A stretch of DNA of 64,000 nt from Candidatus Levyibacteriota bacterium. Its GTDB lineage: Bacteria > Patescibacteriota > Microgenomatia > Levybacterales > UBA12049. A program made the position numbers and the translations under genes. The stretch covers positions 240,236-304,235 of the forward strand of contig CP066685.1 in NCBI GenBank assembly GCA_016432345.1. Reading direction: 5' to 3'. Shown in pieces: positions 9,899-56,342 of this stretch (its first letter is position 1; each line of letters starts with the position of its first letter). The notes beneath the pieces were generated by a model. The model saw nothing but the letters and a program-made list of their open reading frames with translations, was not told the origin of the DNA and ran no database searches.

Positions 9899-9942
9899 TT
9901 ATTCTACCATATTATGGTAAAGATACAATAATAAGAGTGTTA

Positions 9943-9990: not shown

Positions 9991-9998
9991 AAATCTTA

Positions 9999-10445
9999 TT
10001 AGAATGGTTTGTTTTGTTTTCTGCGTTCTTCCCACTGTTTTCGGCGGACTTCTGTCCAGTTAGTGCCATATTTGGGTGGCAACGCTTGTGTTAAAAAATG
10101 ATCAAGATCTTGCCAAAACTTTTCCCATTTTTCCTTGCTCATAATTTGTTCAACCGCCATTTTGTATCCTTTTCCTCTGTGTGTAAGATTTGTTTTGACA
10201 TTCCAGATAGTTTGATTACTTACTTTGAGTTTATTATTTATTAAAGGATAGTCATGTCCTTTTATAAGCATAAATGCAATCGCTAATCGTTTTGATAGCA
10301 TAAGTTTTTCGGTCGGACTCAAAAGATCATCAAGAAACATAGAAATTTTTTCTTTTGTGGAAAGCATAGCAAGAGACATCCAAAAAAGATCTAAAATTCT
10401 TTCCTCAACATCTTTGTGTAAATACCGTTTTGAAACTTGAGCCAT
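9999..10445 (-). CDS. TrpR/YerC/YecD-like DNA-binding protein
   Basis: The central region LSPTEKLMLSKRLAIAFMLIKGHDYPLINNKLKVSNQTIWNVK fits the Trp-repressor-like HTH pattern (..E...L..R...A.ML..G..Y..I......S..TI..V). Confidence 0.55.
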   Translation of the reverse strand: MAQVSKRYLHKDVEERILDLFWMSLAMLSTKEKISMFLDDLLSPTEKLMLSKRLAIAFMLIKGHDYPLINNKLKVSNQTIWNVKTNLTHRGKGYKMAVEQIMSKEKWEKFWQDLDHFLTQALPPKYGTNWTEVRRKQWEERRKQNKPF

Positions 10446-10467
10446 ATTCTACTTGATGAATAAAATA

Positions 10468-10490
10468 TGATCTTTCGAAAGATCATAGTA
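10468..10490. promoter_or_regulatory. Copy 2 of the 21-nt box; an 18-nt perfect palindrome upstream of the yerC-like gene (candidate operator)
   Basis: TGATCTTTCGAAAGATCA (10468-85) lies 23-40 nt upstream of the start at 10445. The 21 nt at 10470-90 are identical to 9960-80. Confidence 0.55.
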
Positions 10491-10584
10491 TGTTCATTTT
10501 TATTGTGGGGGATTTTTGGAAGGCTGTCAAGGATACAAAAAAAGTAAATGTGAAGACAGTAAAATATTATAGGCTCTTGACATC

Positions 10585-35318: not shown

Positions 35319-36167
35319 ATGGATAATTCAACAAGACCACATTATCATCATTTAAAAGAAAAGTGGACAGCAAAAAACAAAAGTTTGCAGGCGAGACTTT
35401 GGGATAAGCATAAAGATTCTCTTTCACAGCTAGCCATAGGCTCGTTAAGCGGACTGATGATGCTTTCTTCTCCAGGTATATCGCAATTGTCTCCTTCTCA
35501 ACTATCTGTAATTCAAGAAGCGCCGATTAGCAAACATGCATTTCTTGTGGCAGATTTATCACACGTGTTGCCAAAAGAAATGCGGCCTTTATCAGAAGAA
35601 GAAGAAAAAAAGGTTTCGGATGTTTTCTCTCGCTATTTTTCTTTTAAGGCGATTGCAGAGTTGGATGGGAAAAAACTTAACAGAAGTTATGGACTTATTG
35701 GTCAGGAACAACATTTGGCAAGGTACCCGGGAGATAATTTGGGCAGCCATTTTGATTCAGAAGGCCAAGCGCAGCAGTTTGCAAGTCAAGGCATGGCACC
35801 AGGTCTTGGTGCATTTGGATATTTTGTTCCTTCAAAGCAGCATTTGACAGAAAAAGATAATTTGCGGGAAAAATATTACATTGCTGTCCAGACATTTCTT
35901 GTTCCTGATTACGTTCAAAGGTTAGCTGAATACCGAGATTTTTTTCGATTTAGAAAAATGTTAGTTGTCAATCCGCAAAACGGCCAAGCAGTTGTTGCGG
36001 TTATTGGAGATGCGGGGCCCGGAGAATTTACAGGCAAACATCTTGGGGGATCGCCCGAAGTTATGCGTCATTTAGAGCGAGTTGATGGTTCGATGCGTGG
36101 ACCAGTAATTTATTTTTTTATTGATGATCCAAATGATACAATTCCCTTGGGACCAGTTAATTTATGA
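35319..36167 (+). CDS. Hypothetical protein; the C-terminus weakly resembles an RlpA-like DPBB domain
   Basis: An N-terminal hydrophobic segment follows a basic region. The C-terminal LVVNPQNGQAVVAVIGDAGPGEFTGKHLGGSPEVMRHL resembles the V.N..NG..V.V...D.GP pattern. Confidence 0.3.
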   Translation: MDNSTRPHYHHLKEKWTAKNKSLQARLWDKHKDSLSQLAIGSLSGLMMLSSPGISQLSPSQLSVIQEAPISKHAFLVADLSHVLPKEMRPLSEEEEKKVSDVFSRYFSFKAIAELDGKKLNRSYGLIGQEQHLARYPGDNLGSHFDSEGQAQQFASQGMAPGLGAFGYFVPSKQHLTEKDNLREKYYIAVQTFLVPDYVQRLAEYRDFFRFRKMLVVNPQNGQAVVAVIGDAGPGEFTGKHLGGSPEVMRHLERVDGSMRGPVIYFFIDDPNDTIPLGPVNL

Positions 36168-36493
36168 AACATTTTTACAGTCATCTTATCGAAACTTCAA
36201 CTCTTAGTCTGGCGCTTGGAGATATGGAATTATCACAAGTTGAGCGTTTAGAACTACTTTCTCTTGCGCACGAAAATCTCCATCATGCGGTTTTGGACAC
36301 TGTGCTTTCCGAACTTTCAGAAAACGATAAGAAATTATTTCTACAACATTTGGCAGTTGATAATCACGATAAAATTTGGGAATTATTAAAAAGCAAAGTA
36401 GAAAATATAGAAGAAAAAATTAAAAAAGCAGCAGAAAGTTTAAAAGAAGAATTACACAAAGATATTTTAGAAGCAAGACATAAAAAAAATTAA
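36164..36493 (+). CDS. Hypothetical helical protein
   Basis: An ATGA overlap couples it to the upstream gene. No recognisable motif. Confidence 0.4.
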   Translation: MKHFYSHLIETSTLSLALGDMELSQVERLELLSLAHENLHHAVLDTVLSELSENDKKLFLQHLAVDNHDKIWELLKSKVENIEEKIKKAAESLKEELHKDILEARHKKN

Positions 36494-36930
36494 ATCCTAA
36501 TGCGGTAGCGTTTGGTGAAGGATTTGCCGGATGCAAGAGTTCCTGTAACTTCAAAAATTGCATTTGTAATATTAGTGTGATAGCGGCAGATATTTTTTGA
36601 ACAGGTGCCAAATAAAAGCTCGCGACTTGCACTGCTTCCTTCGTCTTTTCTAACCGATCCACCAGCTCCTTCTTCCCTACCTTCGGTTCGGTAGATCAGT
36701 GCATAGGATACATTTGAGGCGTTTTGCAGATTGCTAAAGTAAACAAGAAGCGCTTTTCGGTCTCGTCTTAATTTCGGCGAAACACTAATTCCTACTGTTT
36801 TTCCAGATGAATTTATTACTTTTTTAGCAGTTCCCGCAGATTTTGCCTGCGGCAAAACCTTTGCCGAAGCTTCAAAGGGAAAAAGAAAAGAAACAAAAAG
36901 TAAGATTGTTGTTAGAATTAGTGTTTTCAC
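36490..36930 (-). CDS. Hypothetical secreted protein
   Basis: Signal peptide MKTLILTTILLFVSFLFPFEASA. Convergent with the upstream + strand genes. Confidence 0.5.
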   Translation of the reverse strand: MKTLILTTILLFVSFLFPFEASAKVLPQAKSAGTAKKVINSSGKTVGISVSPKLRRDRKALLVYFSNLQNASNVSYALIYRTEGREEGAGGSVRKDEGSSASRELLFGTCSKNICRYHTNITNAIFEVTGTLASGKSFTKRYRIRI

Positions 36931-36962
36931 ATTAATAAGTATATCATATGGGTTTTAATTTT

Positions 36963-36971
36963 TGGTAGAAT
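36963..36971 (+). promoter_or_regulatory. Extended -10-like element TGGTAGAAT upstream of the RhuM-family gene
   Basis: A TGnTAnAAT match 30 nt upstream of ATG 37001. Confidence 0.35.
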
Positions 36972-37000
36972 AGAGATGATGCTTTAGTATTAATATAAAT

Positions 37001-38002
37001 ATGATGAAAAATAAATTACCAGAAAATCAAATAATTATTTACGAAACAGATGATGGGAAAGCTCGTATTGATGTTCGTTTTGAAGAAGAAAATGTTTGGT
37101 TGACGCAAAAATTGCTAGCAGATCTGTTCGGCACTACAACGGCAAACATCAACATGCATCTTAAAAACATATTTCAACAAAAAGAACTTGATGAAAATTC
37201 AGTTATTAAGGATTTCTTAATAACTGCTTCTGATAGAAAGCAGTACAGGGCAAAACATTATAACCTGGAAGCAATTATTGCTATTGGGTATCGCGTTAAT
37301 TCAAGTCGTGGCACATTATTCCGTCAATGGGCAACCGAACGATTAAAAGAATATATTGTCAAAGGTTTTACTCTTGATGATATGCGTCTTAAGCAGGGTG
37401 GGCATAAGTCTCGATATTTTGAAGAGCTGTTACAGAGAATTCGCGACATTCGAAGTAGTGAGCGGATGTTATATCAAAAAGTAACCGATATTTACGCGAC
37501 ATCTATTGATTATCGGAAAGATGCTAAAGAGACTGATATTTTTTTCAAAACCGTGCAGAATAAGATGCACTATGCTGTAAGCGGTAAAACTGCTGCTGAA
37601 ATTATAACGGAACGAGTTGATAAAAATAAAAAGAATCTCGGTCTGACAAACTTTTCAGGTTACCATCCAATTAAAAGAGATATCTATATAGCGAAAAATT
37701 ATCTTTATGAAGAAGAGCTGAAAATGCTTAATCGTATTGTTGATGCTTATCTTTCTTTTGCCGAAATTCAGGCGATAAGCGAGAAAACAATGATAATGAA
37801 AGATTGGATTAAAAAACTTGATGAGTATCTTATGCTTATGGGTAAAGGCATATTAAAAAATGCCGGCAAGGTAAGTATGGAAGAAGCGCAAGGTAAAGCA
37901 GACGAGGAATTTTTGGAAAGCAAAAAATCAGAGGATAAAAAGTATGTTTCTGATTTTGACCGCGAGGTAAAAAAGCTGTTAAGAATGAAGAAAGAAAAAT
38001 AA
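37001..38002 (+). CDS. RhuM family protein
   Basis: N-terminal IIIYETDDGKARIDVRFEEENVWLTQKLLADLFG...NLEAIIAIGYRVNSSRGTLFRQWAT is typical of the RhuM family. Confidence 0.75.
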   Translation: MMKNKLPENQIIIYETDDGKARIDVRFEEENVWLTQKLLADLFGTTTANINMHLKNIFQQKELDENSVIKDFLITASDRKQYRAKHYNLEAIIAIGYRVNSSRGTLFRQWATERLKEYIVKGFTLDDMRLKQGGHKSRYFEELLQRIRDIRSSERMLYQKVTDIYATSIDYRKDAKETDIFFKTVQNKMHYAVSGKTAAEIITERVDKNKKNLGLTNFSGYHPIKRDIYIAKNYLYEEELKMLNRIVDAYLSFAEIQAISEKTMIMKDWIKKLDEYLMLMGKGILKNAGKVSMEEAQGKADEEFLESKKSEDKKYVSDFDREVKKLLRMKKEK

Positions 38003-38034
38003 ATCTATTTCTGATAAAATAACAAGAAACAATT

Positions 38035-38112
38035 ATGTCAGTTTTTGATAATTTTACCAACCGCTACTCCCTCTCCAAAACCCTGAGGTTTGAGCAACAT
38101 ATAACTCTTTAG
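38035..38112 (+). pseudogene. cas12a: cas12a (cpf1) 5'-terminal remnant: 20 homologous codons, then 5 unrelated codons and a stop
   Basis: Encodes [20 protein letters not shown]|QHITL*. Recalled Cas12a N-termini include Fn [23 protein letters not shown] and Lb [23 protein letters not shown]. Confidence 0.75.
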
Positions 38113-38164
38113 GATTGTTTAGCTCGTAGTATCTTACAAGCTTCGTTTTTGTTAGAATTACATT

Positions 38165-40675
38165 ATGCAAAAAGAAGCTAAGGCAAGGATTAAAATTAAT
38201 GAACTTCTCAAAAGTTCAGGCTGGCGTTTTTTTGATGATGAAAAAGGTAAAGCAAACATAGTTTTGGAAAACAATGCAAAAGTCACCAAACAGGCTATAG
38301 ACGAATTCGGCAATGATTTTGAGAAAACACAAAAAGGGTTCATTGACTTTTTATTACTTGATGAAAAGGGTTTTCCGTTTGTAGTTTTGGAGGCAAAATC
38401 CGAGGATAAAGACCCACTTGACGGTAAAGAGCAGGCTCGTCGTTATGCCCAATCGCAAAATGTTCGTTTTATTATTCTCTCCAATGGCAACCTGCATTAT
38501 TTTTGGGATTTAGAACGGGGTAATCCGTCCGTTATTATTACGTTTCCATCTTATCAATCACTTAAGCACTCCGAATCGTTCAATCCGAGTTTTTTGACAC
38601 TTGCCGAAGAAAAGGTTGAAAACGACTACATACTTCTCACTCAAAACCCAAATTATCAAAAAGACCCGCGCTGGATAGATAAAACCCAAAAAGAAGCTTT
38701 AATAAAAGAGCAAGATTTGAAGTTATTACGACCATATCAATTAGCAGCAATTCACACTTTACAAAACGAAGCCAAGAAAGGCAATGATAGATATCTTTTT
38801 GAAATGGCTACCGGTACAGGCAAAACTCTTATTTCCGCAGCAGTTATCAAATTATTTCTCAAGTCCGGCAACGCAAAGCGAATTTTATTTTTAGTTGATC
38901 GTTTGGAATTGGAAGATCAGGCGTGGAAAAACTTCGCTAAGATTTTAAAAAACGACTACACATGTGTTATCTATAAAGGAAATCGTGATGATTGGCGTAA
39001 GGCAGAAGTTGTTGTTTCCACAGTACAAAGTTTGTCATTCAACAGCAAATATAAAAAACTCTTTAGTCCGACAGATTTTGATCTGATTATTTCTGATGAA
39101 GCGCATCGTTCTATTGGTGGCAACAGCCGTGCCGTATTTGAGTATTTTGTCGGTTATAAATTAGGACTTACTGCCACCCCAAAGGATTACCTTAAAAACA
39201 TTGACCCCCAAAAATTAAGCGAGAAAGATCCCCGATCATGGGAACGTCGTCAGCTGTTGGATACTTATCAAACATTTGGTTGTGAATCGGGCGAGCCAAC
39301 ATTCAAGTATAGTTTGCTTGATGGTGTTAAAGATGGATATCTGGTAAATCCTATTGTTGCGGATGCAAGGACAGAAATAACAACAGAACTTTTATCCGAA
39401 AAGGGCTATTCTTTAATCGTTGAGAACGATGAGGGTATTGAAGAGGAGCAAGTTTTTTTTCAAAAAGATTTCGAGCGTAAATTCTTTTCAGACAAAACAA
39501 ATAAAATCTTTTGCAAAACATTTTTGGAAAATGCACTTAAAGACCCAGTAAGTGGAGAGATTGGAAAATCAATCATTTTCTGTGTTAGTCAAGCACACGC
39601 ATCAAAAATTACTCAAATTCTTAACGAGTTTGCAGATTCACTTTGGTCTGACAAATATAACTCTGATTTTGCTCTACAAATTACTTCAAATATCGGTGAT
39701 GCACAACAATTCGTAATTAACTTTTCAGATAAAAGCAATAACCTCAATGGTCATACAAAATGGCTTGAAAATTACAAATCAAGCAAAACCAGAGTATGCG
39801 TAACTGTTGGTATGATGACGACTGGTTATGATTGTCAAGATATATTAAACATTTGCATGATGCGTCCCATTTTTTCTCCTACCGATTTTATTCAAATCAA
39901 AGGACGAGGGACACGTAAATATACTTTTAAATACAAAGACAGCGAAAATGAAATAATTTCTACCGAAAAAGCTACTTTCAAACTTTTTGACTTTTTCGCC
40001 AATTGCGAATACTTCGAGAAAAAATTTAACTACGACCAAGAATTAAAACTACCTATCGGTAAAGGAACTGGTGGTAGCGGTGGTGGAGGGATTGATATAG
40101 ATGAGGTAACAGTTGCCACACCAGACCCGCTTAAAACACTTACCCAAACCCCCATAGGATTAGCCGGTATGAAAGTGGATTGGAAGTTCTTTGAAAAGTT
40201 TGAATCTGTGGTCAAAAACAATTCTGTTGTCAAACAAAAATATGAACAAGGAGATATTTCCGGTATTGAGGAATATGTAAAAAACGAGATCTTTGAAAAG
40301 CCAGAGGACTATTTCAACTTGGAGAAACTTCGTAAATCAGTAAAGGCAGACCGCCGCATTAGCTTAAAAGAGATACTGGAGAAAATCTTCGGCGGAATAA
40401 ATAAATTTAAATCTAAAGATGAATTACTGGAAGAGGAATTTGAAAAGTTTGTTACAATTTACAAACCGGAAAGTAAATATGTTCTCCCAATTAAAAATTA
40501 TCTTAAAGCGTATATAACCGACTCCGAAATTCGGGACATTGTTGAGAGAAAAGAATACAGCCGTTTTGCCACTAATCCCAAAGTTACAATGAGAGACTTT
40601 AAAGAATTAAATGGCTATCGCGAAATTGTGCCGGAATATGTCAAAGATTATGTTTCTATTAACACTTATTTGTAA
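38165..40675 (+). CDS. hsdR: Type I restriction enzyme R subunit (HsdR)
   Basis: N-terminal PD-(D/E)xK (FIDFLLLDE..VVLEAKS). SF2 motifs MATGTGKT, ISDEAHRS and QIKGRGTR. The C-terminal helical region is EcoEI-R-like. Confidence 0.85.
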   Translation: MQKEAKARIKINELLKSSGWRFFDDEKGKANIVLENNAKVTKQAIDEFGNDFEKTQKGFIDFLLLDEKGFPFVVLEAKSEDKDPLDGKEQARRYAQSQNVRFIILSNGNLHYFWDLERGNPSVIITFPSYQSLKHSESFNPSFLTLAEEKVENDYILLTQNPNYQKDPRWIDKTQKEALIKEQDLKLLRPYQLAAIHTLQNEAKKGNDRYLFEMATGTGKTLISAAVIKLFLKSGNAKRILFLVDRLELEDQAWKNFAKILKNDYTCVIYKGNRDDWRKAEVVVSTVQSLSFNSKYKKLFSPTDFDLIISDEAHRSIGGNSRAVFEYFVGYKLGLTATPKDYLKNIDPQKLSEKDPRSWERRQLLDTYQTFGCESGEPTFKYSLLDGVKDGYLVNPIVADARTEITTELLSEKGYSLIVENDEGIEEEQVFFQKDFERKFFSDKTNKIFCKTFLENALKDPVSGEIGKSIIFCVSQAHASKITQILNEFADSLWSDKYNSDFALQITSNIGDAQQFVINFSDKSNNLNGHTKWLENYKSSKTRVCVTVGMMTTGYDCQDILNICMMRPIFSPTDFIQIKGRGTRKYTFKYKDSENEIISTEKATFKLFDFFANCEYFEKKFNYDQELKLPIGKGTGGSGGGGIDIDEVTVATPDPLKTLTQTPIGLAGMKVDWKFFEKFESVVKNNSVVKQKYEQGDISGIEEYVKNEIFEKPEDYFNLEKLRKSVKADRRISLKEILEKIFGGINKFKSKDELLEEEFEKFVTIYKPESKYVLPIKNYLKAYITDSEIRDIVERKEYSRFATNPKVTMRDFKELNGYREIVPEYVKDYVSINTYL

Positions 40676-40677
40676 AT

Positions 40678-40869
40678 ATGAAAAAACAAAAAACAGGTTG
40701 CAGACATGATTATAAAAACGCCATTCAAGTTGGAAATGTTGATTATCAATGCCGTCTTTGTGGTGGACTTCTTGATCCAGGCGAGTGGTTTCTGATGAAT
40801 AGTTTTGAATTTATAGATGTGGATGTAAAAAGAGAAACAAAAATAAAAAAAGATAATAAAAAAAGATAA
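40678..40869 (+). CDS. Small Cys-containing (zinc-ribbon-like) protein with a Lys-rich tail
   Basis: 63 aa, tightly packed between hsdR and hsdMS (3-4 nt gaps). Contains C-x-H...CxxC (CRHD...CRLCGG). Confidence 0.5.
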   Translation: MKKQKTGCRHDYKNAIQVGNVDYQCRLCGGLLDPGEWFLMNSFEFIDVDVKRETKIKKDNKKR

Positions 40870-40873
40870 TATT

Positions 40874-43351
40874 ATGCTTAATCAAGAAACCAAACGAAAA
40901 ATTGATTCTGCCCGCGACATTTTAGTTGGCAAAGTCCCGGATCCAAAGGCCCAAGTTGAACAAATCACCACAGCTTTAATCTATAAGTTTATGGATGACA
41001 TGGACAAGACATCGCAAGAACTAGGTGGTAAGGCTAGATTTTTCACTAATGGTTACGAAAAATACGCGTGGACAAAATTGATGGATGCCAAACTGGGTGG
41101 ACACGAGAAACTCGATCTGTATATGGAAGCACTTGCTAAACTTTCTTTAAATCCCCATATTCCCCAATTATTCCGTGATATTTTCAAAGATGCATTTCTA
41201 CCCTATCGTAATCCTGAAACTCTAAGTTTATTTTTGAAAGAAATAAACGGTTTTACTTACGAACATAGCGAGGATCTAGGGGATTCATTTGAATACTTAC
41301 TTTCGGTTTTGGGAAGCCAGGGAGATGCAGGACAATTCCGAACTCCTCGGCACATTATTGATTTTATAGTAGATGTCGTTAACCCCAAAAAAGATGATAC
41401 CATCTGCGATCCTGCTTGTGGCACTGCTGGTTTTTTAATTTCTGCCTACAAACATATACTCAAACAGCATGATGGAAAAAATGACCCTGAAAACAAAGAA
41501 AAACCACTTACCCCAGATGAACGAAAAAAACTCATGGATCATTTTACAGGTTATGACATTAGCCCAGATATGGTTCGACTCTCGAGAGTTAATTTATATC
41601 TGCATGGGTTTCCCAATCCGACGATTTACGAATACGACACGCTTTCAAGTGAGGAAAAATGGGATGAAAGTTTTGATGTAATGCTTGCTAACCCTCCGTT
41701 TATGACTCCCAAAGGGGGTATCAAACCGCATAAGCGTTTTAGTGTTCAAGCCAATCGTTCCGAAGTTTTATTTGTGGATTACATTTTAGAACACCTACGT
41801 CCAAATGGCCGTGCGGGTATTATTGTGCCGGAAGGAATTATTTTTCAATCAGGCAATGCTTATAAACAACTCCGTAAGTTATTAGTCGAAGAAAATTATC
41901 TGTGGGCTGTAGTGTCACTTCCCGCTGGAGTATTCCAGCCTTATTCGGGGGTTAAAACTTCAATTTTGTTTTTAGACCGTGAACTTGCAAAAAAATCAGA
42001 TTCAGTCGTATTTATGAAAGTCAACAATGATGGGCTTGACTTGGGAGCCCAAAGAAGGGAAATAAAAGAAAATGATTTACCAACAGCTTTAATGCTATTG
42101 AATAGTTATAAGAAAAATATTACTTCAAATAATTTACCACAAACCAATGATCTGGAAACATTAACAAAGAATACAATTTCAATTTTTGTACCCAAATCTA
42201 AGATTCGAGAACTCGGTGATTATTACCTGACTGGAGAACGATATAAAGAAATTAACGAGCTAAAAAATCAAAAATGGCCTATGGTGGAGTTGGGTGATAT
42301 TTGTATAGTTTTAGATAGTAAACGAAGACCAGTAACAAAAGCAGACAGAAAATCTGGAAAATATCCTTATTATGGTGCAACAGGCATATTGGATTATGTT
42401 GATGGGTTTTTGTTTGACGAAAAACTTGTATTAGTTGGAGAAGATGGAGCTAAATGGGGTAAAGGTGAGAAAACTGCTTTTATTGCTGAAGGTAAATATT
42501 GGGTGAATAATCATGCACATGTTATGCGACCCATAAGAGACAGACTTATTGATGAATACCTTGTGCCAGTTCTTAATTCAATGGACTTAACACCATATAT
42601 TACAGGAGTGACAGTCCCAAAGTTGAATCAGGAAAGGTTGAGGTCAATAAAAATCCCTTTACCACCGATTGAGGTACAAAAAAAAATAGTTGAGGAAGTA
42701 GAAAGTTACCAGAAAATTATTGACGCTGCTAAACAGATAGTAAACAGTTGGAAACCTGAAATTGAGATAAATACTGCTTGGGAGCTAAAAAAAATCAGTG
42801 AGGTGGCTGAAATTAATCCTTCAAAACCTAAATTTAAAGAATGGGATTTAGATAAAGACGTCTTTTTCTTACCAATGTCAGTACTCGATACGAATTCTCC
42901 TAACCCGAAAAAAATGGAAAAAAGAAAACTGAAAGAAGTTATAAATGGTTACACCTGTTTTAAAAATGATGATGTGTTGTTGGCGAAAATTACCCCATGC
43001 TTCGAAAATGGAAAATCCGGAATTGTAAAGCTAGACGGTGTTGGGTTTGGATCAACAGAGTTTATTGTGATTAGAGCAGATAGATCAAAAGTTGAACCGC
43101 TTTGGTTATGGTATTTTATTTTTTCAGATAGTTTTAAAATAAACGGTATTCCAAAAATGTCTGGTTCAGCAGGGCAAAAAAGATTACCTGTAACTTACGT
43201 TGAAAATTATGAAATTCCGGTGCCGAACCTTGAAACACAAAAAGCAATAATAGCTACACTTAAACTCAATTATGATTATATAAAAAATACTAAAGAAAAT
43301 ATAATTCCCCAATTAGAGCAAAAGATTCAGGCTGTGCTGGAAGAAATATGA
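40874..43351 (+). CDS. hsdMS: Type I R-M methyltransferase-specificity fusion (HsdM-HsdS in one polypeptide)
   Basis: AdoMet motif DPACGTAGFL and catalytic LANPPFM. From about aa 470 there are two HsdS TRDs (WPMVELGDICIV...; WELKKISEVAEI...), each followed by a conserved helix (PLPPIEVQKKIVEEVE; VPNLETQKAIIATL). Confidence 0.85.
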   Translation: MLNQETKRKIDSARDILVGKVPDPKAQVEQITTALIYKFMDDMDKTSQELGGKARFFTNGYEKYAWTKLMDAKLGGHEKLDLYMEALAKLSLNPHIPQLFRDIFKDAFLPYRNPETLSLFLKEINGFTYEHSEDLGDSFEYLLSVLGSQGDAGQFRTPRHIIDFIVDVVNPKKDDTICDPACGTAGFLISAYKHILKQHDGKNDPENKEKPLTPDERKKLMDHFTGYDISPDMVRLSRVNLYLHGFPNPTIYEYDTLSSEEKWDESFDVMLANPPFMTPKGGIKPHKRFSVQANRSEVLFVDYILEHLRPNGRAGIIVPEGIIFQSGNAYKQLRKLLVEENYLWAVVSLPAGVFQPYSGVKTSILFLDRELAKKSDSVVFMKVNNDGLDLGAQRREIKENDLPTALMLLNSYKKNITSNNLPQTNDLETLTKNTISIFVPKSKIRELGDYYLTGERYKEINELKNQKWPMVELGDICIVLDSKRRPVTKADRKSGKYPYYGATGILDYVDGFLFDEKLVLVGEDGAKWGKGEKTAFIAEGKYWVNNHAHVMRPIRDRLIDEYLVPVLNSMDLTPYITGVTVPKLNQERLRSIKIPLPPIEVQKKIVEEVESYQKIIDAAKQIVNSWKPEIEINTAWELKKISEVAEINPSKPKFKEWDLDKDVFFLPMSVLDTNSPNPKKMEKRKLKEVINGYTCFKNDDVLLAKITPCFENGKSGIVKLDGVGFGSTEFIVIRADRSKVEPLWLWYFIFSDSFKINGIPKMSGSAGQKRLPVTYVENYEIPVPNLETQKAIIATLKLNYDYIKNTKENIIPQLEQKIQAVLEEI

Positions 43352-43767
43352 ATGTAGAAAAATACAAGGAAGATTTGAAAAGAGAGGTATCCAAAAAAAA
43401 GAGTGAGGGTTATCAATTTATTCCTATCATTTCGGGAGCAACATCTTTATATTTTCTACAAAGAATTATTTTTTCGAATTTACCGTACGATAAATTTATA
43501 CTTGCAATTGGTGCCGTTTTGATAGTTTTTGGAATTTCTGCTTTTCTTTTTTGGTCACTAAAAAGAGCCGAACAAGACAAAGATAAGTATTTATTAAGTA
43601 CGGTTGGCAAAATTGTAGAGGATGTGTTTAAGCATTACGGAGTATCTATGGCGAGTAACGCAGCTGGTCCAACAACAGCTAATCAAATGAATCCAATTAT
43701 GCTAACTATTGTAGACTTAGTAAGCGGTCTAAAAGAGCTAATGCAGAAAAGCTATACAAAAAACTAA
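43348..43767 (+). CDS. Hypothetical 2-TM membrane protein, translationally coupled to hsdMS
   Basis: Its ATG overlaps the hsdMS TGA. Two hydrophobic helices. No recognisable motif. Confidence 0.5.
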   Translation: MNVEKYKEDLKREVSKKKSEGYQFIPIISGATSLYFLQRIIFSNLPYDKFILAIGAVLIVFGISAFLFWSLKRAEQDKDKYLLSTVGKIVEDVFKHYGVSMASNAAGPTTANQMNPIMLTIVDLVSGLKELMQKSYTKN

Positions 43768-43807
43768 ATACATAATTTTAGAAGTTCAGGTATAATAAAT
43801 TAACAAT

Positions 43808-44173
43808 ATGCCAAGTCTACAAGTTAATTGGGTTAAAAATTCAAATAATAATCAGTGGTTTGATCTTTTGAGGCTTGATCTCAATGCGCCTTATTTTCTG
43901 AATAAGGAAGGGGTTTATATTTTATGGTACTCTAGTCCGTCAGGAGCGAAAGTAATACGAGTTGGTCAAGGAGATATTGGGAGCAGATTAAGGGAACACA
44001 GGAGTAATCCAGAAATTTTAAGATACTCTAGCTATGGACAATTAAAAGTTACCTGGGCATTAGTAGATTCGCAGTACAAAGATGGGGTAGAAGCATTTTT
44101 ATATGATTCTTATAGTCCTTTAATTGGTGAAAGGTCACCTGCTGCCCAACCTATTTCGGTAAATCTAATATGA
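43808..44173 (+). CDS. GIY-YIG-like domain protein (hypothetical nuclease)
   Basis: GVYILWY..(x9)..VIRVGQG..GSRLREHRS...GVEAFLYD follows the GIY-x(9-11)-YIG-R...E spacing. Confidence 0.45.
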   Translation: MPSLQVNWVKNSNNNQWFDLLRLDLNAPYFLNKEGVYILWYSSPSGAKVIRVGQGDIGSRLREHRSNPEILRYSSYGQLKVTWALVDSQYKDGVEAFLYDSYSPLIGERSPAAQPISVNLI

Positions 44174-44649
44174 TAAATTGGGTTGATGTAGCAAAAACCT
44201 TTCTTGAAAGTCTATTAGGACCTTTAGTTGTTGGTTTAGTTATTTGGCGAGTTGGGAAAAATGAAGTTGATAAGAGAATTAAAAATGAGGCAATAAGAGA
44301 TTTAATGACTTTTAGAGGTGATTATTCTTCTCCAGAATTTCGTCGATCGCTTAACAAAGTTTCGATTACATTCCATGGAGATGAAGCGATCAGGCAGCAA
44401 ATTCGTGATTTATACGAGGATATCAATAATCCGGGTAACTCGGAAACAAATATAAATAGAAAAATAGTTGGGTTAATATACAATTTATGCAGAAAGAATG
44501 GTTTTGGTGGTATTACTGAATATGATATTGACCAATCATTCCCAGAACAAAAACAAACACCTACTTCAACTTTAACTCCTACTTCACACCAAGTTTTACA
44601 GGATAAACCTAAAATTCCAAAAAATGGAAAGAATAAGAAAACAAAATAG
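44170..44649 (+). CDS. Hypothetical membrane-anchored protein with a T/P/K-rich tail
   Basis: ATGA overlap with the upstream gene, and an N-terminal TM segment (LLGPLVVGLVIW). No recognisable motif. Confidence 0.45.
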   Translation: MINWVDVAKTFLESLLGPLVVGLVIWRVGKNEVDKRIKNEAIRDLMTFRGDYSSPEFRRSLNKVSITFHGDEAIRQQIRDLYEDINNPGNSETNINRKIVGLIYNLCRKNGFGGITEYDIDQSFPEQKQTPTSTLTPTSHQVLQDKPKIPKNGKNKKTK

Positions 44650-44764: not shown

Positions 44765-45373
44765 ATGAAAAATCCAAATGTTGTGCGGTTTGTTGGTCTT
44801 GGGGTAGTAATAATAATGCTTGTTGCTTTTGGCATTTTCTTTTTTTCCTCTTCAAAAAAATCTGATCCTGTTCCTTTGCAGCAAAATGTACCGGTGGAAA
44901 CAAAAAAATCTCCATCTCTTACAACAAAAACTTATGTTGACGATGCAGGATTTCAATTTGATTACCCAGATGATTTGACTGTTGCTAAAAAAGACAACAC
45001 AAGTTCTGTTACATATTCATCTTTAGAAATTGTATCAAAAGAGGTATCTGGATCTATGTTTTTTCTGGTTGAGGACACCAAAGCTAAATCTGTTGACGAA
45101 TTGGTAGAGAAAAATACGACAACAAAAGAAGCAGCACTTGGAAGTTTGGAGGCTATAGAAGTAACAGGTGGCGATAAAACGACACTTTTTGCCATTGATC
45201 AAGGGATACTTTTTCAAGTAACTCTTTATAGAGCAACAGACAAGTCGTATTGGGATGGTGTATACCAAACAATTATTTCGAGTTTTTCCTTTGTTGCTCC
45301 TGCCGCAAGTTCTCAAAGTTCTTCGGATAGCGACAATAATGATGTAGTTCAAGAAGAGGATATTATTGAATAA
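44765..45373 (+). CDS. Hypothetical membrane-anchored protein
   Basis: An N-terminal TM segment, then a soluble domain and an acidic Ser-rich tail. Overlaps the tkt start by 8 nt. Confidence 0.5.
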   Translation: MKNPNVVRFVGLGVVIIMLVAFGIFFFSSSKKSDPVPLQQNVPVETKKSPSLTTKTYVDDAGFQFDYPDDLTVAKKDNTSSVTYSSLEIVSKEVSGSMFFLVEDTKAKSVDELVEKNTTTKEAALGSLEAIEVTGGDKTTLFAIDQGILFQVTLYRATDKSYWDGVYQTIISSFSFVAPAASSQSSSDSDNNDVVQEEDIIE

Positions 45374-47237
45374 TATGAACCAAAATAATAGCTGGAAAGC
45401 TAAGGCAACCTTAATTCGTAAATGGTCTCTTGTTTCAACATCTGCAGCAGGTTCTGGACACCCCACCTCTTGTATGTCGGCAGCAGATTTAGGAACAGTT
45501 TTATTTGATAAATATTTTTGTTTTGATATTAAAAATCCCAAGAATCCAAATAACGATCGGTTTGTTTTATCCAAAGGCCACGCATCACCACTTTTATACG
45601 CGCTTTTTGCCATGAGCGGAGGACTCAAAATTGAAGAACTAAAAACCTTGAGAAAATTTGGCAGTCGTTTGGAAGGACATCCAACACCACGATTTCCATA
45701 TGCCGATGTTACTACGGGTTCGCTTGGTCAAGGTTTATCTGTAGGCGCAGGAATGGCATTTTCAATTCATAATTCAGAATTCAGAATTCAGAATTTGCCT
45801 AAGGTGTATGTACTTTTGGGGGATGGCGAGTTGGCAGAAGGCAGTGTGTGGGAAGCGGCAAATTTTGCTTCTTATTATAAATTGAATAATCTTATTGCCA
45901 TTGCCGATATCAATGGTTTGGGGCAGAGTCAGGAAACAATGTTTAATCATCATATCAATGAATATACCGATCGTTTTTCGGCATTTGGCTGGGAAGTAAT
46001 TGCTATTGATGGTCATGATTTTTTGGAAATTGATAAAGCATTATCACTGGCTGTTAATAATAAATCGGATAAGCCGTTTGTGATTATTGCCAAAACAGAA
46101 AAAGGCAAAGGCGTTTCTTTTTTGGAGGGAAAAAATGGATGGCATGGGAAGCCGCTTAAAAAGGATGAATTAGAAAAAGCGTTGTTGGAGTTGGGAGAGG
46201 TTTCGGATGATTTAAGATTTACGTTGAAGTTGCCTAGAGAATCGCAGACTGATACAAGGTCACACCTTGTACAAGGTGCGACCTTAACAAATCCCCCTTA
46301 TAAAAAGGGTGAGGAAGTTGCAACACGGGAAGTGTATGGACAAGTTTTGGCAAAGCTTGGAGATAGCAATACTTTAATATATGCTTTAGATGGCGATACG
46401 AAAAATTCTACATATTCTCAGGATTTCTTAAAAGCTCATCCGGATAGGTTTATTGAATGTTTTATTGCCGAGCAAAATATGGTGGGTGTGGCAACAGGAC
46501 TTTCTACACAAGGAAAAATTCCATTTGTATCAACGTTCGCCGCGTTTTTAACAAGAGCGTTTGACCAAATAAGAATGGCTGCGGTTTCAAAAGCCAATGT
46601 AAAGTTTGTTGGTTCGCATGTTGGTGTTTCGATTGGAGAAGATGGGCCATCGCAAATGGGACTTGAAGATATGGCTATGTTTGGCGCTCTTCCTGATTCT
46701 ATTATTTTACACCCATCAGAAAGTGTATCAACAGCCAAACTTTTGCCGCAGATGGTATCCCATGTTGGTATTTCGTATCTTCGAACCTTGCGAGCAAAAA
46801 CAGCGGTTTTGTATGATAATAATGAAGAATTTGTTGTCGGTGGTTCAAAAATTCTCAAAAGATCAAAAACAGATATACTAACTGTTGTGGCTGCGGGTAT
46901 CACTGTTTTTGAGGCGCTTAAAGCATACGATATACTAAGAAGTGAGGGTATAATAATACGTGTTGTTGATTGTTATTCGGTAAAGCCAATCGATGACAAA
47001 ACGTTAATTAAGAGTTTAAAAGAGACAAAGAAAAAAATTATTATTACTGTTGAAGATCATTTTGAGCATGGCGGTTTGGGGGATTTTGTTTTGGATGCTG
47101 TTTCTGAAACAGGAGTACATGTTATAAAAATGGCAGTTAATCATATTTCTCGTTCTGGGACAAAAGATGAGGTTATGGAAGATGCCGGCATTACAGCGAA
47201 ACATATTGTTGAAAAAGTAAAAAAACTAATTGATTAG
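45366..47237 (+). CDS. tkt: Transketolase, with the N-terminal (TPP-binding) and C-terminal (Pyr + C-terminal) sections fused in one ORF
   Basis: N-terminal half: SGHPTSCMSAADL, GSLGQGLSVGAGMA, LLGDGELAEGSVWEA. C-terminal half: ATREVYGQVLAKLG, FIAEQNMVGVATGL. The linker at about aa 285-320 contains the palindromic element. Confidence 0.88.
   Translation: MNNMNQNNSWKAKATLIRKWSLVSTSAAGSGHPTSCMSAADLGTVLFDKYFCFDIKNPKNPNNDRFVLSKGHASPLLYALFAMSGGLKIEELKTLRKFGSRLEGHPTPRFPYADVTTGSLGQGLSVGAGMAFSIHNSEFRIQNLPKVYVLLGDGELAEGSVWEAANFASYYKLNNLIAIADINGLGQSQETMFNHHINEYTDRFSAFGWEVIAIDGHDFLEIDKALSLAVNNKSDKPFVIIAKTEKGKGVSFLEGKNGWHGKPLKKDELEKALLELGEVSDDLRFTLKLPRESQTDTRSHLVQGATLTNPPYKKGEEVATREVYGQVLAKLGDSNTLIYALDGDTKNSTYSQDFLKAHPDRFIECFIAEQNMVGVATGLSTQGKIPFVSTFAAFLTRAFDQIRMAAVSKANVKFVGSHVGVSIGEDGPSQMGLEDMAMFGALPDSIILHPSESVSTAKLLPQMVSHVGISYLRTLRAKTAVLYDNNEEFVVGGSKILKRSKTDILTVVAAGITVFEALKAYDILRSEGIIIRVVDCYSVKPIDDKTLIKSLKETKKKIIITVEDHFEHGGLGDFVLDAVSETGVHVIKMAVNHISRSGTKDEVMEDAGITAKHIVEKVKKLID
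45771..45795 (+). repeat. (AATTCAG)x3.5 heptanucleotide tandem repeat inside tkt
   Basis: AATTCAGAATTCAGAATTCAGAATT, translated as NSEFRIQN, in the loop preceding VYVLLGDGE. Confidence 0.9.
46256..46288 (+). repeat. Palindromic element copy A (33 nt, in-frame in the tkt linker)
   Basis: AAGGTCACACCTTGTACAAGGTGCGACCTTAAC. One arm mismatch. Translated as RSHLVQGATLT. Confidence 0.9.
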
Positions 47238-47269
47238 AAGGTCGCACCTTGTTAAGGTGCGACCTTAAC
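47238..47269 (+). repeat. Palindromic element copy B (32 nt, intergenic, directly after the tkt stop)
   Basis: AAGGTCGCACCTTGTTAAGGTGCGACCTTAAC. Perfect 13-bp arms. Starts 1 nt after the TAG stop. Confidence 0.9.
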
Positions 47270-47276
47270 ACAGATT

Positions 47277-48182
47277 ATGTGGATTGGATTTTTTGGCATA
47301 CTTGTGATTGGTATATTAGGTGGAAGCACCCCAATATTAGTTAAGTTAGGATTAACAGAATTTCCTCCATTGCTACTTACAACACTGCGATTTATCATTG
47401 CGACTATTATATTTTTACCCTTTTTTCTTCAAGAGAAAAGACATCTTACAAGACATGATATTTGGATTTTATTTACTAGATCCCTATTTTTTGCCGGAAA
47501 CGCAGGTATTTTTAGCATTGCTATACAATATACCACAGCAATAATTTCGCAAGTTCTTTATAGTTTTGTTCCTGGGATAGTTTTGGTTATGAGTTTTCTT
47601 TTTTTACGAGAGAATATGACAAAACAAAGAATCATAGGTTTATTTATTGCAGTAATTGGTGTTGGTATTCTTATTCAACAATCAATTATAAAAACAGAGG
47701 TATTAACATTTGGCACCTTGATTGGTAATATGTTGACCTTGCTTGCAGCTTTATCATGGTCTGCATATACTGTGGTTTCAAAGAGATTGACAGATGTCTA
47801 TAGTCCGGTTGTTACCACATTTGCAAGTTTTGTAACAATAATAATTATTCTTGTTCCCCTTTTACCTATTGAGTATATATTGCAACCAGTACAACTGGAA
47901 AATGTTGATTTGTCTGGTGTTGGTAGTGTTATGTACTTGGGTATTTTTTCTTCTGCATTTATGTTTTTTCTTACACAATTATTAATACAAAAGACAAGTT
48001 CTTTTGTTACATCACTTTCTCAATATCTAGCGCCATTTGCCGGTGCTATGATTGCTATTCCGATTTTAGGAGAAAAACTTACGCCACTGTTTTTTCTTGC
48101 AGGAGTTTGTGTAGTTGTCGGTGTTTTTTACGCAACAAGTTACGAAGGTGTAAGAAAACACATAAAATCCGTGTTACAATAA
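47277..48182 (+). CDS. DMT superfamily (EamA-like) transporter
   Basis: Ten predicted TM helices in two EamA-like halves. Confidence 0.75.
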   Translation: MWIGFFGILVIGILGGSTPILVKLGLTEFPPLLLTTLRFIIATIIFLPFFLQEKRHLTRHDIWILFTRSLFFAGNAGIFSIAIQYTTAIISQVLYSFVPGIVLVMSFLFLRENMTKQRIIGLFIAVIGVGILIQQSIIKTEVLTFGTLIGNMLTLLAALSWSAYTVVSKRLTDVYSPVVTTFASFVTIIIILVPLLPIEYILQPVQLENVDLSGVGSVMYLGIFSSAFMFFLTQLLIQKTSSFVTSLSQYLAPFAGAMIAIPILGEKLTPLFFLAGVCVVVGVFYATSYEGVRKHIKSVLQ

Positions 48183-54214: not shown

Positions 54215-55051
54215 ATGTCTGTACCAAGAATTGTTTGGGGCATTTTTTCTGTATTGCTCTTTTTTGTTTTTTATTTTCTTTTTCCGCAAAAAACTTTTGC
54301 CGCATTTTCATTAAGTATTTCAAGTATTAATCCGGATACTGTTTCTAGTAGTGGTCAAGAGGTAACAGTAAATATAAGTATAAATGATTTGCCTAGTGAG
54401 TCTTATTTTCGTGTTGCTTGGCAGAAATCATCGGGTGAGACCTATTTTGGATATATGTTGAATAACAATAATGATTGGGTAAAAGTTGAATCTAGCCAGG
54501 ATTGTAAAAATTACTATAAAATTTCGGATTTAACTACGACGTCTTTAACAATAAAAACAAAAATTGGCGAAGAAAATACAGTCAATAACAGATCATATCT
54601 TTTAAAAGCTAGACGATATACGACTAGTTGTTCTTCATATTATACAGATAGTGATCCGGTTTCAATACAAGTAAATTTTTCTACTTTAACTGCGACACCG
54701 ACACAAGTTCCATTTCCTACTCAAATAAAAACACCTACTCCTATTCCAACAAACAAATCAACCCCAACCTCAAAAGCAACACAAACGCCTACATTTACTT
54801 TTACTCTCACGCCAACAACAAAAGTTGTTGTCCCAACAATAGAGGGAATTGATATTGGTCCAACGTCTATTTTGGGTGAAATGGTTACGGCAGCGCCGTC
54901 GGCAATGCCAACGGAAGCTATACAGAAAGAAGAAGGGCCGTTTTTTGATTTTCCAAAAATTGCCATCGGACTTGGTTTTGTGTTTCTTTCAACGTCTGGT
55001 ATACTAGCGTTTCGAAGTTACAAAAAGAGTCAAGGAGATGATTACAGGTAG
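54215..55051 (+). CDS. Hypothetical surface protein (signal peptide, T/P-rich linker, C-terminal TM anchor)
   Basis: N-terminal signal, the TPTPIPTNKSTPTSKATQTPTFTFTLTPT linker, and the C-terminal IAIGLGFVFLSTSGILAF...KK anchor. Confidence 0.55.
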   Translation: MSVPRIVWGIFSVLLFFVFYFLFPQKTFAAFSLSISSINPDTVSSSGQEVTVNISINDLPSESYFRVAWQKSSGETYFGYMLNNNNDWVKVESSQDCKNYYKISDLTTTSLTIKTKIGEENTVNNRSYLLKARRYTTSCSSYYTDSDPVSIQVNFSTLTATPTQVPFPTQIKTPTPIPTNKSTPTSKATQTPTFTFTLTPTTKVVVPTIEGIDIGPTSILGEMVTAAPSAMPTEAIQKEEGPFFDFPKIAIGLGFVFLSTSGILAFRSYKKSQGDDYR

Positions 55052-55475
55052 CTATAAAAAAACCCAAAGTCTTGGGGAAGAATTTGTTAAAAGGTCGCAC
55101 CTGGTACAAGGTGCGACCTTAACAGCAAAGGTTGTTGCATTGCATGGGGATTTGGGTGGCGGGAAAACAACATTTACCCAGGGAATCGCAAAGGGATTAG
55201 GAATAAAAAGACGAATTATATCGCCGACGTTTGTCGTTGTTAGAACTTATAAAATAAAATTTAAGAAATTTTATCACATTGATTTATATAGAATTCAAAG
55301 TCTAAAAGATATTGAGGGATTGGGAATTGAGGAGATTTTAGAAAATCCAGAAAATATTGTGGTTATTGAATGGGCAGAAAGGCTTGGGGATTTATTACCA
55401 AAAAAAAGAACAGATGTTTATTTTGAATATCTAGATAAAAATAAGCGTAGAATTACTTATGATTTCAAATATTGA
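55038..55475 (+). CDS. tsaE: tRNA threonylcarbamoyladenosine biosynthesis ATPase TsaE (carries an 11-aa insert from the palindromic element)
   Basis: P-loop GDLGGGKTTFTQGIAKGLG, PTFVVVRTY, and HIDLYR. Confidence 0.85.
   Translation: MITGSYKKTQSLGEEFVKRSHLVQGATLTAKVVALHGDLGGGKTTFTQGIAKGLGIKRRIISPTFVVVRTYKIKFKKFYHIDLYRIQSLKDIEGLGIEEILENPENIVVIEWAERLGDLLPKKRTDVYFEYLDKNKRRITYDFKY
55091..55123 (+). repeat. Palindromic element copy C (33 nt, in-frame in tsaE)
   Basis: AAGGTCGCACCTGGTACAAGGTGCGACCTTAAC, translated as RSHLVQGATLT, just upstream of the P-loop. Confidence 0.9.
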
Positions 55476-56034
55476 GAAAGCAATTAAAATATTAAAAGAG
55501 GGGGGGATTGTAATTTTTCCCACAGACACTGCTTTTGGTATTGGCTGTCGAGTAGACAATAAAGAATCGGTGCGAAGGTTATTCAAAATTAGAAAGCGGC
55601 CCCAAACTCAAGCAATGTCTATTTTAATTGATACAATTACAATGGCAAAAAAGTATGTTTTGAAAATTCCACAGGATGTTATAGATAAACTTATCGAGCC
55701 GTATTGGCCTGGCGCATTAACAATTGTTTTATCGGCAAATATGAAATCGGTTTCATCGTTAGTTAGGGGTGGAGGAGAAACAGTTGGGGTAAGAATTCCA
55801 AACCACGCAATTGCCAGAAAACTTATTCGTGGTGTGGGTGTTGGTATTTTGGGTCCCTCGGCAAATTTCCATGATGAACAAACACCTTATCGGTATGAGG
55901 ATTTAAATCCAAAACTCATAAAATTAGTTGATTATGTTATTCCAGGCGAATGTTTGGTTGGCAAGGCGTCCACTGTTATTGATTGTTCAGAAAAACCGTG
56001 GGCAGTGGTTAGAGAGGGAGCAATCAAATTATGA
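55459..56034 (+). CDS. tsaC: L-threonylcarbamoyladenylate synthase (YrdC/TsaC type)
   Basis: GGIVIFPTDTAFGIGC, the PGALTIVL motif, and a single YrdC domain of about 190 aa. Confidence 0.88.
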   Translation: MISNIEKAIKILKEGGIVIFPTDTAFGIGCRVDNKESVRRLFKIRKRPQTQAMSILIDTITMAKKYVLKIPQDVIDKLIEPYWPGALTIVLSANMKSVSSLVRGGGETVGVRIPNHAIARKLIRGVGVGILGPSANFHDEQTPYRYEDLNPKLIKLVDYVIPGECLVGKASTVIDCSEKPWAVVREGAIKL

Positions 56035-56342
56035 CTACTTTAATAATAGATACTTCAAGTAATGAGTATATTTATGTTGGATTATCCATTGATGGGAAAA
56101 CAGATAATATCAAACAAAAAATTGATGCAAGAAAGGCTCAGGTGGTGCTTCCACTTATTGACAAGCTTTTAGACAAGCATCAATTGAAGCCAACGGACAT
56201 TAGTTCTATAGAAGTTAATGTTGGTCCTGGGTCTTTTACCGGCCTTCGAGTAGGGATGGTTATAGCAAATGCGTTAGCTTATTCACTAAAAATTTCGGTA
56301 AATAATAAACCAGTTGGAGAATTTATTGAACCCACTTATTAA
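56031..56342 (+). CDS. tsaB: TsaB-like protein, N-terminal domain only (103 aa)
   Basis: LIIDTSSNEYIYVGL...VNVGPGSFTGLRVGMVIANALAYSL. The ORF ends after the first ASKHA half-domain. Confidence 0.7.
   Translation: MTTLIIDTSSNEYIYVGLSIDGKTDNIKQKIDARKAQVVLPLIDKLLDKHQLKPTDISSIEVNVGPGSFTGLRVGMVIANALAYSLKISVNNKPVGEFIEPTY

Follow-up and report, generated by a model that had tools for sequence, protein, structure and literature searches.

The window analyzed here is a stretch of 64,000 nt of contig CP066685.1 (assembly GCA_016432345.1), and coordinates within it are counted from its first nucleotide. It carries three copies of a short palindromic hairpin in and around two genes. Copy A lies within the transketolase gene tkt, copy C lies within tsaE, both of them essential genes, and copy B fills the 39-nt spacer between the tkt stop codon and the ATG of an EamA-family transporter gene (Table 1). 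The copies are probably non-autonomous mobile hairpins of the repetitive extragenic palindromic (REP) type, served in related genomes by a Y1 transposase that resembles the REP-associated tyrosine transposases (RAYTs).

Table 1. Hairpin copies and host genes in the window, and gene-internal copies at loci elsewhere (L numbers denote loci).
Feature	Location	Strand	Remarks
Copy A, REP-type hairpin	46256..46289	+	13-bp stem with one mismatch, loop GTAC, tail AACA
Copy B, REP-type hairpin	47238..47270	+	Perfect 13-bp stem, loop GTT, tail AACA
Copy C, REP-type hairpin	55091..55124	+	Stem with one loop-proximal mismatch, tail AACA
Transketolase gene (tkt), 623 aa, hosts copy A	45366..47237	+	Best structure matches are human-type transketolases
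tsaE, 145 aa, hosts copy C	55038..55475	+	PF02367
EamA-family transporter gene	47277..48182	+	Orthologue in L046 is PF00892 EamA
Copy in tgt	L012		Frame RSHLxQGAT(L/F)
Copy in folD, between its two domains	L024		Frame RSHLxQGAT(L/F)
Copy in uvrC, RNase H domain, in frame	L036 (5147-6484)		Frame RSHLxQGAT(L/F)
Copy in a 472-aa open reading frame	L005		Frame RSHLxQGAT(L/F)
Copy in ribD	L014		Mixed frames
Copy in a CofE-like ligase gene	L044		Mixed frames
Copy in the gene of an LTD-domain protein	L007		Mixed frames

Direct reading and a mismatch-tolerant pattern search of the 64 kb returned exactly three copies with the core AAGGTC(G/A)CACCT-loop-AGGTGCGACCTTAACA, in agreement with the sequence-only reading, which had described three copies, one of them intergenic. 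Without their last nucleotide they read AAGGTCACACCTTGTACAAGGTGCGACCTTAAC (copy A, 46256-46288), AAGGTCGCACCTTGTTAAGGTGCGACCTTAAC (copy B, 47238-47269, 32 nt) and AAGGTCGCACCTGGTACAAGGTGCGACCTTAAC (copy C, 55091-55123). An invariant A follows at the 3' side of all three, so the unpaired tail is AACA and the unit is 33-34 nt long. The unit comprises a 13-bp stem (AAGGTCGCACCTT / AAGGTGCGACCTT), a loop of 3-4 nt in the window copies and the unpaired 3' tail. The stem follows the design AAGG-N5-CCTT paired with its complement, N5 being TCGCA/TGCGA in the lineage of the window. No match to the element was found in 100 dinucleotide-preserving shuffles of the window. The 13-nt arm has six matches in the window, all within copies A-C, and the generalized AAGG-N5-CCTT hairpin occurs at no further window site and in none of the window shuffles. 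A DNA uptake sequence was rejected, there being no lone half-site in the window.

The GC-rich hairpin potential noted earlier was reproduced by folding. The hairpins have predicted free energies of -16.9, -22.6 (copy B) and -25.8 kcal/mol, with z-scores of -4.2 to -6.6 relative to shuffled controls. Rfam searches of the whole window and of copy B alone returned nothing meaningful, and the window contains no tRNA or tmRNA genes. Translation showed that copies A and C are in the same frame and both encode RSHLVQGATLT. Copy B would read RSHLVKVRP followed by a stop in that frame, and both points had been made correctly from the letters.

Copy A falls in the inter-domain linker of transketolase, as aligned to human and split-chain transketolase structures. 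Its position coincides with the break between the two chains of the split-chain enzyme, and the linker around it is hypervariable across 40 homologues. Copy C encodes part of a TsaE loop just ahead of strand β1 and the P-loop, and the alignments of TsaE to solved structures start only after it. The copy amounts to seven extra residues compared with 16 TsaE orthologues, all of which are without the insert. Linker and pre-β1 loop are both structurally permissive, and the orthologue comparisons uphold the earlier proposal that the inserts are lineage-specific. As had also been stated, copy B starts 1 nt past the tkt TAG (47235-47237); it ends 6 nt short of the ATG of the transporter gene (47277).

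The closest relative found, GCA_964544105.1, is syntenic with the window at about 80% protein identity and is empty at all three sites. Its tsaE has 21 bases fewer at the site of copy C, its tkt linker is unrelated, and its orthologous tkt is intact without copies A and B. The spacer from tkt to the next gene is 7 nt long, compared with 39 nt in the window. Judged from these comparisons, the three window copies are insertions and not ancestral sequence. The bracketing of the C-terminal half of tkt by copies A and B, pointed out by the sequence-only reading, looks incidental: the two copies occupy two permissive places, a linker and a 3' spacer, and the relative's gene is intact. At other places in GCA_964544105.1 the element does occur: one copy is in frame within ribD (L014), and another lies upstream of a trpF-like open reading frame (ORF; L027). 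At the same linker position, a decayed copy, AAGGTCGGATTTTATGCAAGGTTCGTCCTTAGCA, is found in a more distantly related transketolase gene (L047, 72% identity); the linker insertion common to it and tkt would be older or recurrent.

The record of GCA_964544105.1 (L045, L046) is titled 'uncultured Gammaproteobacteria bacterium', yet the genome clearly belongs to a Levybacterium by its window gene order and the roughly 80% identity of its TsaE and transketolase. Record titles of this type are unreliable for taxonomy among the third-party annotation (TPA) loci from metagenome-assembled genomes (MAGs), L005-L030.

An ancient coding motif kept by conservation is hardly credible as the origin of the palindrome, and so are similarity by chance and an artefact of assembly. 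Two copies do encode 11 identical residues, as a coding motif might. The third copy is intergenic, the orthologues are without the residues, the shuffles gave no match, and the element is not confined to three sites of an ancient coding sequence, the same DNA being found elsewhere in unrelated genes and spacers. Moreover, the TsaE copy was found in four independent Logan contigs, three of which were read (SRR12113425, SRR12113385 and SRR12113428), and it is therefore not an artefact of assembly.

A wider search for the element, suggested by the earlier reading, was made in public collections. The scans covered one of the two arm orders (the flipped order is GGTGCGACC...GGTCGCACC), and the genome scan used one genome per species and the exact stem closed by any loop of 3-9 nt. 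In the species-representative genomes the stem pattern had 32 matching stretches, against about 1 expected by our own rough estimate, and a tail-specific pattern found 9 more in metagenome contigs. No match was obtained in the viral contigs scanned, which thus gave no sign of a phage vector. Overall, the hairpin was located at about 40 further loci outside the window, mostly in MAGs of Patescibacteria. The hosts are for the most part low-G+C members of this group (Davies-, Gottesman- and Yonathbacteria, Paceibacterota, Saccharibacteria) or are mislabelled as Gammaproteobacteria. Loops vary (3-7 nt or more) and flanks are unrelated among the copies. The AACA tail (TGTT on the other strand) is present in all 16 oriented copies of the subfamily, and the left flank of the oriented copies is T-rich.

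An extraordinary conservation of the stem across phyla was discarded as an artefact of the search pattern, since a relaxed pattern showed lineage-specific N5 variants. In one MAG, an intergenic region with a GGTCGCACC copy also has, 0.5 kb away, a second stem variant, AGGTTTCACCT TGTACA AGGTGAAACCT (L010, 3262-3289); a single genome can thus contain more than one variant. Two loci (L008, 1100-1200; L034, 2960-3030) have the identical 11-nt stem, AGGTCGCACCT...AGGTGCGACCT, with the loop CCGG. They come from Actinobacteria of 73% G+C, an isolate of Pseudactinotalea suaedae and a Beutenbergiaceae MAG, in which runs of related half-sites surround the hairpin. These hairpins may represent an unrelated REP-like family with the same stem core.

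An apparent enrichment of copies near contig ends was dropped, because the genome-scan loci are fixed 8-kb blocks whose ends are not contig ends. A few true cases, at or within about 200 nt of a contig end, were seen at L015, L016, L021, L025 and L026. Hairpin and flank are identical in sequence at L016 (2513-2541, contig end) and L023 (61-89). The element may contribute to MAG fragmentation and contig breaks, so that copy numbers are perhaps underestimated.

The 143 ORFs lying at most 2.5 kb from the copies were submitted to Pfam in one batch. Three of them, of about 223 aa each (L020, L033 and L035), matched PF01797 (Y1_Tnp, IS200-like) with 38-43 bits, compared with a cut-off of 23. The only NCBIfam match of the three proteins is NF047646, the REP-associated tyrosine transposase. 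At L020 and L033 the Y1 gene has a GGTCGCACC hairpin on both sides, and at L057 a GGTCGCACC hairpin lies upstream of it. In the MAGs CAYZZG and CALRFD the hairpin variant flanking the gene is also the dispersed variant (L024, L035); a further dispersed copy of a gene-flanking variant is found at L050, position 4450. Each of five further homologues, from Levy-, Davies- and Curtissbacteria and from one sequencing run, is directly bordered by AAGG-N5-CCTT hairpins, usually at both flanks. N5 depends on the lineage: ACGGA, TTGCA/TTACA, TCGGA and TGCCA are the variants of L048-L056, and TCGCA is that of L057. Altogether, a flanking hairpin is present at seven of the eight distinct Y1 genes examined, and the generalized hairpin occurs nowhere else in the 20-kb transposase loci.

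All aligned family members keep the motifs LMPNHxHL (HUH) and SRYIHL (Tyr) unchanged, and the family profile aligns both of them to ISDra2 TnpA. As a single sequence, the RAYT-like protein had no match among PDB sequences. An AlphaFold model of a family member (mean predicted local distance difference test score 75.7) was compared with the PDB using Foldseek. The best match of the predicted fold was 4er8_A, the E. coli RAYT-REP hairpin complex (E 8.1e-7, target TM-score 0.62), followed by IS200/IS605 transposases. The RAYT-like protein is about 225 aa long, including a C-terminal extension of roughly 75 aa, and has at least 7,987 database homologues. Named homologues of 60-87% identity come from Davies-, Levy-, Shapiro-, Curtiss- and Gottesmanbacteria. 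No TnpB partner was found among the called genes of the loci fetched. On sequence grounds, the Y1 proteins are best described as divergent RAYT relatives and not as certified equivalogs.

The RAYT-like gene adjoins uvrA in a Levybacterium (L048/L049) and lies between uvrA and uvrB in a Daviesbacterium (L052-L054), and its neighbourhood is shared among distinct MAGs. At L048 (553-598) the hairpin upstream of the gene has TTGACA in its loop, followed after 17 nt by AATAAT ending 6 nt before the ATG, an 11/12 match to a sigma-70 promoter. A TTGACA(T) loop upstream of the gene was also seen at L020 (1285-1316), L050 (2256-2283), L055 (9955-9983) and L057 (5598-5626). The arrangement suggests a leaderless transcript and a possible autoregulation via the enzyme's own binding site.

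The hairpin and the Y1 gene that it flanks form the 'REPtron' arrangement that defines REP/RAYT systems, and because of this flanking in related genomes the hairpin is assigned to the REP/RAYT type in preference to the Rickettsia palindromic elements (RPEs). Known REPtrons combine REPs, or REP doublets (REPINs), with a RAYT, as in E. coli TnpA-REP (4er8) and the Pseudomonas REPIN-RAYT systems (PMC3116915, PMC5581495, PMC3479197, PMC3733652). Like a REP, the element is a G+C-rich stem-loop in the range of 20-40 nt with a conserved unpaired tetranucleotide at one end, and its copies lie mostly between co-directional or convergent genes, near gene ends. As in REP/RAYT systems, a small HUH/Tyr Y1 gene is flanked on both sides by the same hairpin, and the hairpin sequence covaries with the transposase lineage. 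The predicted fold, with 4er8 as its best match, is likewise RAYT-like. As has been described for REPs (PMC3733652), certain copies sit in frame inside genes and certain copies provide a stop codon.

Differences from the known systems were also evident. The host is a member of the Patescibacteria, the candidate phyla radiation (CPR), with small compact genomes. The stems pair perfectly, with arms that are near-palindromes in their own right (AAGGT-NNN-ACCTT); the units are mostly single and not inverted doublets as in REPINs. Apparent copy number is low, and about a quarter of the sampled sites are intragenic. The protein, of about 225 aa, has a C-terminal extension and falls under the NCBIfam equivalog cut-off.

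Several observations weigh against assigning the three copies to a REP/RAYT-type system. Only 3 copies were found per 64 kb, and no representative genome had more than 3 exact-core copies; classical REP-rich genomes hold tens to hundreds. The NF047646 scores of 39-50 bits lie under the equivalog cut-off of 80, and sequence identity to 4er8 is only 14%. The count of compensatory changes that supports the assignment (5 of 13 stem pairs among 12 hairpins, with 97% of cells paired) is partly circular, because some of the hairpins were chosen for their complementarity. No Y1 transposase was found in the 64-kb window, the part of the 762,565-bp source contig that was searched, by a Pfam scan of 40 of its 61 ORFs; most of the other ORFs downstream of tkt were identified otherwise, with few left. 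The RAYT-like contig L051, which comes from a run shared with the TsaE copy (SRR12113385), has a different stem variant, GGTTACACC, and may belong to another Levybacterium. Neither a target-site duplication nor exact junctions could be defined, the empty-site genome differing at about 20% of amino acid positions. Finally, two REP super-families have been defined by an unpaired GTAG or CGTC tag (PMC3733652); the tail here is AACA (TGTT), so that the element belongs to neither.

The same data allow the Y1 gene and its hairpins to be read as an ordinary autonomous insertion sequence of the IS200/IS605 type, with the lone hairpins as solo ends or derivatives resembling palindrome-associated transposable elements (PATEs). 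The Pfam family is Y1_Tnp (IS200-like), the NCBIfam RAYT scores are under the cut-off, IS200/IS605 transposases are strong fold matches and hairpin copy number is low. In addition, the Y1 HUH fold and motifs are shared with IS608 and ISDra2, whose class of enzymes recognizes subterminal DNA hairpins, and the short conserved sequence adjacent to the hairpin recalls their cleavage and target tetra- or pentanucleotides. Nevertheless, this reading is improbable. The flanks carry the same palindromic unit and not distinct left and right ends, and the dispersed unit is a bare hairpin of about 33 nt without any gene. The best fold match is a RAYT itself (4er8). Moreover, the homologues, 60-87% identical across several candidate phyla and sharing the uvrA or uvrA-uvrB neighbourhood, look more like vertically inherited RAYTs (PMC5581495). 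As for MITEs (miniature inverted-repeat transposable elements), the associated enzyme is of the Y1 and not the DDE type, and no consistent target-site duplication was seen across the 16 oriented copies.

The genomic positions of the copies bear on a possible role in RNA. The copies are mostly intercistronic, roughly 70% of about 40 distinct sites being intergenic, with about 9 inside genes. Many copies occupy the whole 38-48-nt spacer between co-directional genes (copy B, L006, L017, L032, L035 and L042). Of 13 independent sites that bear a tail, 10 have it on the coding strand by our own count. This bias may stem from a strand-specific mechanism on single-stranded DNA (ssDNA) or from selection at the RNA level, and is suggestive at best. 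The hairpin might accordingly be mainly a functional RNA element (an mRNA stabilizer, processing site or attenuator), with the intragenic copies as by-products, and REPs are known to be exapted for RNA roles. The filled spacers, the very stable hairpins and the strand of the tail fit such a role, and a location pattern of this kind has been read as a sign of RNA function in REPs (PMC3733652).

A role primarily in RNA is still considered unlikely, although it would be compatible with a mobile origin. There is no U-tract, a consensus scan calls no terminator at copies A-C, and no Rfam family matches. The sites are empty in the closest relative with the same gene order, so the hairpin is dispensable there. 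Intragenic copies and copies in the opposite orientation (L005, L030 and L038) are unlike a strand-specific RNA role, which would also leave the flanking of transposase genes unexplained. An intrinsic terminator was rejected separately: a T-tract is missing, copy B is followed by AACACAGATTATG, and none of the three copies is terminator-like.

A palindrome can also be a double-stranded site that a dimeric protein binds or recombines, for example an operator or an Xer/dif-like or lox-like core, and two perfect 13-bp inverted arms around a 3-7-bp spacer have the look of one. This explanation is very improbable. The spacer varies from 3 to 7 nt or more, at odds with a fixed dimer geometry, and the compensatory stem changes point to selection on the hairpin. 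Copies lie inside ORFs and are missing from the closest relative. What is associated with the copies is a Y1 enzyme of a hairpin-binding type, and neither a recombinase nor a regulator. The likeness of the tail to the rrn BoxA (CUUUAACAA) was judged coincidental in view of the variable spacers, the intragenic positions and the Y1 link. The likenesses of GTGC-N6-AAC to the EcoKI site and of the arms to dif/lox-type core sites were set aside on the same grounds.

The nine gene-internal copies, seven at the loci listed in Table 1 and two in the window, show a bias of reading frame. Both arms are in the RSHLxQGAT(L/F) frame in six of the nine, and at least one arm is in eight. Gene ends are affected as well. 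The element overlaps the 3' end of pheS (L040/L043) and supplies its stop codon, and the final residues of a GATase gene product (L029) are encoded by it. A third frame yields TAA from the tail, as at the pheS end, and the remaining frame, KVAPCTRCDL, contains Cys and Pro. The frame bias is most simply explained by selection, because one frame would be barred by its TAA and another disfavoured by its Cys and Pro. Intragenic in-frame REPs have been reported in several phyla, many of them in repair genes, and stop codons provided by the ends of REPs are likewise on record (Di Nocera et al., PMC3733652); as a behaviour, this is thus already known.

The earlier reading had compared the element with the RPEs. 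As far as behaviour is concerned, the comparison holds: a selfish palindrome lies between genes and in frame in conserved genes, adding a short peptide at permissive positions, as is borne out by the empty sites in the relative and by the in-frame copies in other Patescibacteria genes. The assignment to that family does not hold, since size, sequence and the RAYT-like gene point to the REP type. Longer RPEs such as RPE-1 are about 100-150 bp and confined to Rickettsia, and to our knowledge no transposase is associated with RPE-1. The present unit measures 33-34 nt, its host is a Levybacterium, it has no resemblance to RPEs beyond being palindromic, and a RAYT-like gene is associated with the hairpin. 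Overlap between the two categories exists already: short repeats found inside R. conorii genes in a study of REPs correspond to RPE-4 and RPE-6 (PMC3733652).

Other short G+C-rich palindromes of A+T-rich genomes, sometimes in frame, include the small dispersed repeats of cyanobacteria, the PARCEL elements of Mollicutes and mitochondrial GC clusters. Their sequences and hosts are unrelated to those described here, and we know of none tied to a flanking Y1 transposase.

In the proposed REP/RAYT-type mechanism, by analogy with E. coli RAYT and the IS200/IS605 TnpA enzymes (IS608/ISDra2), the RAYT-like enzyme would bind the hairpin as folded ssDNA. Its catalytic Tyr would cut and rejoin beside the hairpin, dispersing copies in trans. 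The source genome itself presumably encodes the cognate enzyme. Selection would then filter the survivors, compact genomes keeping copies only where little harm is done. Such places would be the few nucleotides separating co-directional genes (copy B), the ends of genes, which can obtain a stop codon from the tail's CCTTAA, and in-frame loops or inter-domain linkers, which would receive the stop-free and Cys/Pro-free frame RSHL..GATL (copies A and C).

The earlier statement that such insertion had not been described for a CPR genome agrees with literature searches combining RAYT or REPIN with CPR terms, which found no report. A search for the sequence string of the element returned unrelated PCR primers only. 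REP/RAYT systems have been described mainly in Proteobacteria and in a few other phyla. New here are the CPR host group, the absence of a GTAG/CGTC tag, the self-palindromic arms, the divergent RAYT-like clade of about 225 aa and the high intragenic share. About a quarter of the sampled sites are intragenic because CPR genomes have little intergenic DNA. The occurrence of a large and well-conserved RAYT-like family and its hairpins in small, dense CPR genomes extends the range of long-lived intragenomic replicators; a survey of HUH endonucleases found genomes with these Y1 genes to be larger on average (PMC6006769). Protein remodelling by REPs is unusually visible in the CPR, in the form of loop peptides, linker segments and donated stop codons, and odd inserts of 7-11 residues in CPR proteins, as well as C-terminal extensions, find their explanation in the element. 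The pair of hairpin and enzyme is directly testable in vitro.

More speculatively, Patescibacteria might carry an ancient, vertically inherited and domesticated RAYT-REP system, kept through streamlining because the host uses it; we regard this as doubtful. If it were true, the uses could be intercistronic RNA structures, the donation of stop codons and linkers remodelling essential proteins, or a link to nucleotide excision repair. In two candidate phyla the RAYT-like gene has uvrA as its neighbour or lies in the uvrA-uvrB interval, which, together with the in-frame copy in uvrC, hints at a repair link. The apparent placement of the gene's promoter within the upstream hairpin hints at regulation, since it would allow autoregulation by hairpin binding.

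Some further features of the window were recorded. What looks like a defence or variable island spans positions 35319-44649, just upstream of tkt. Its genes include one of the RhuM family (37001-38002), one for a type I restriction R subunit (38165-40675) and one for a fused methylase-specificity protein (40874-43351). Around these are ORFs of unclear function, five without a Pfam match and one matching DUF6680 alone. Downstream of tsaE, a 103-aa ORF (56031-56342) follows a Sua5/YrdC-like gene, and its exact counterpart in L001 has a recorded match to PF00814 (TsaD family) alone. A full-length TsaD is encoded elsewhere in the window (11289-12314, minus strand), and the 103-aa ORF may be a remnant or else a TsaB-like partner of minimal size. 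A different palindrome, with the core GATCTTTCGAAAGATC, is present in two copies (9919-10014 and 10456-10497) that share 23-40 nt. A gene of the Trp-repressor family (9999-10445, minus strand) is flanked by these palindromes, which are plausibly operators for its autoregulation.

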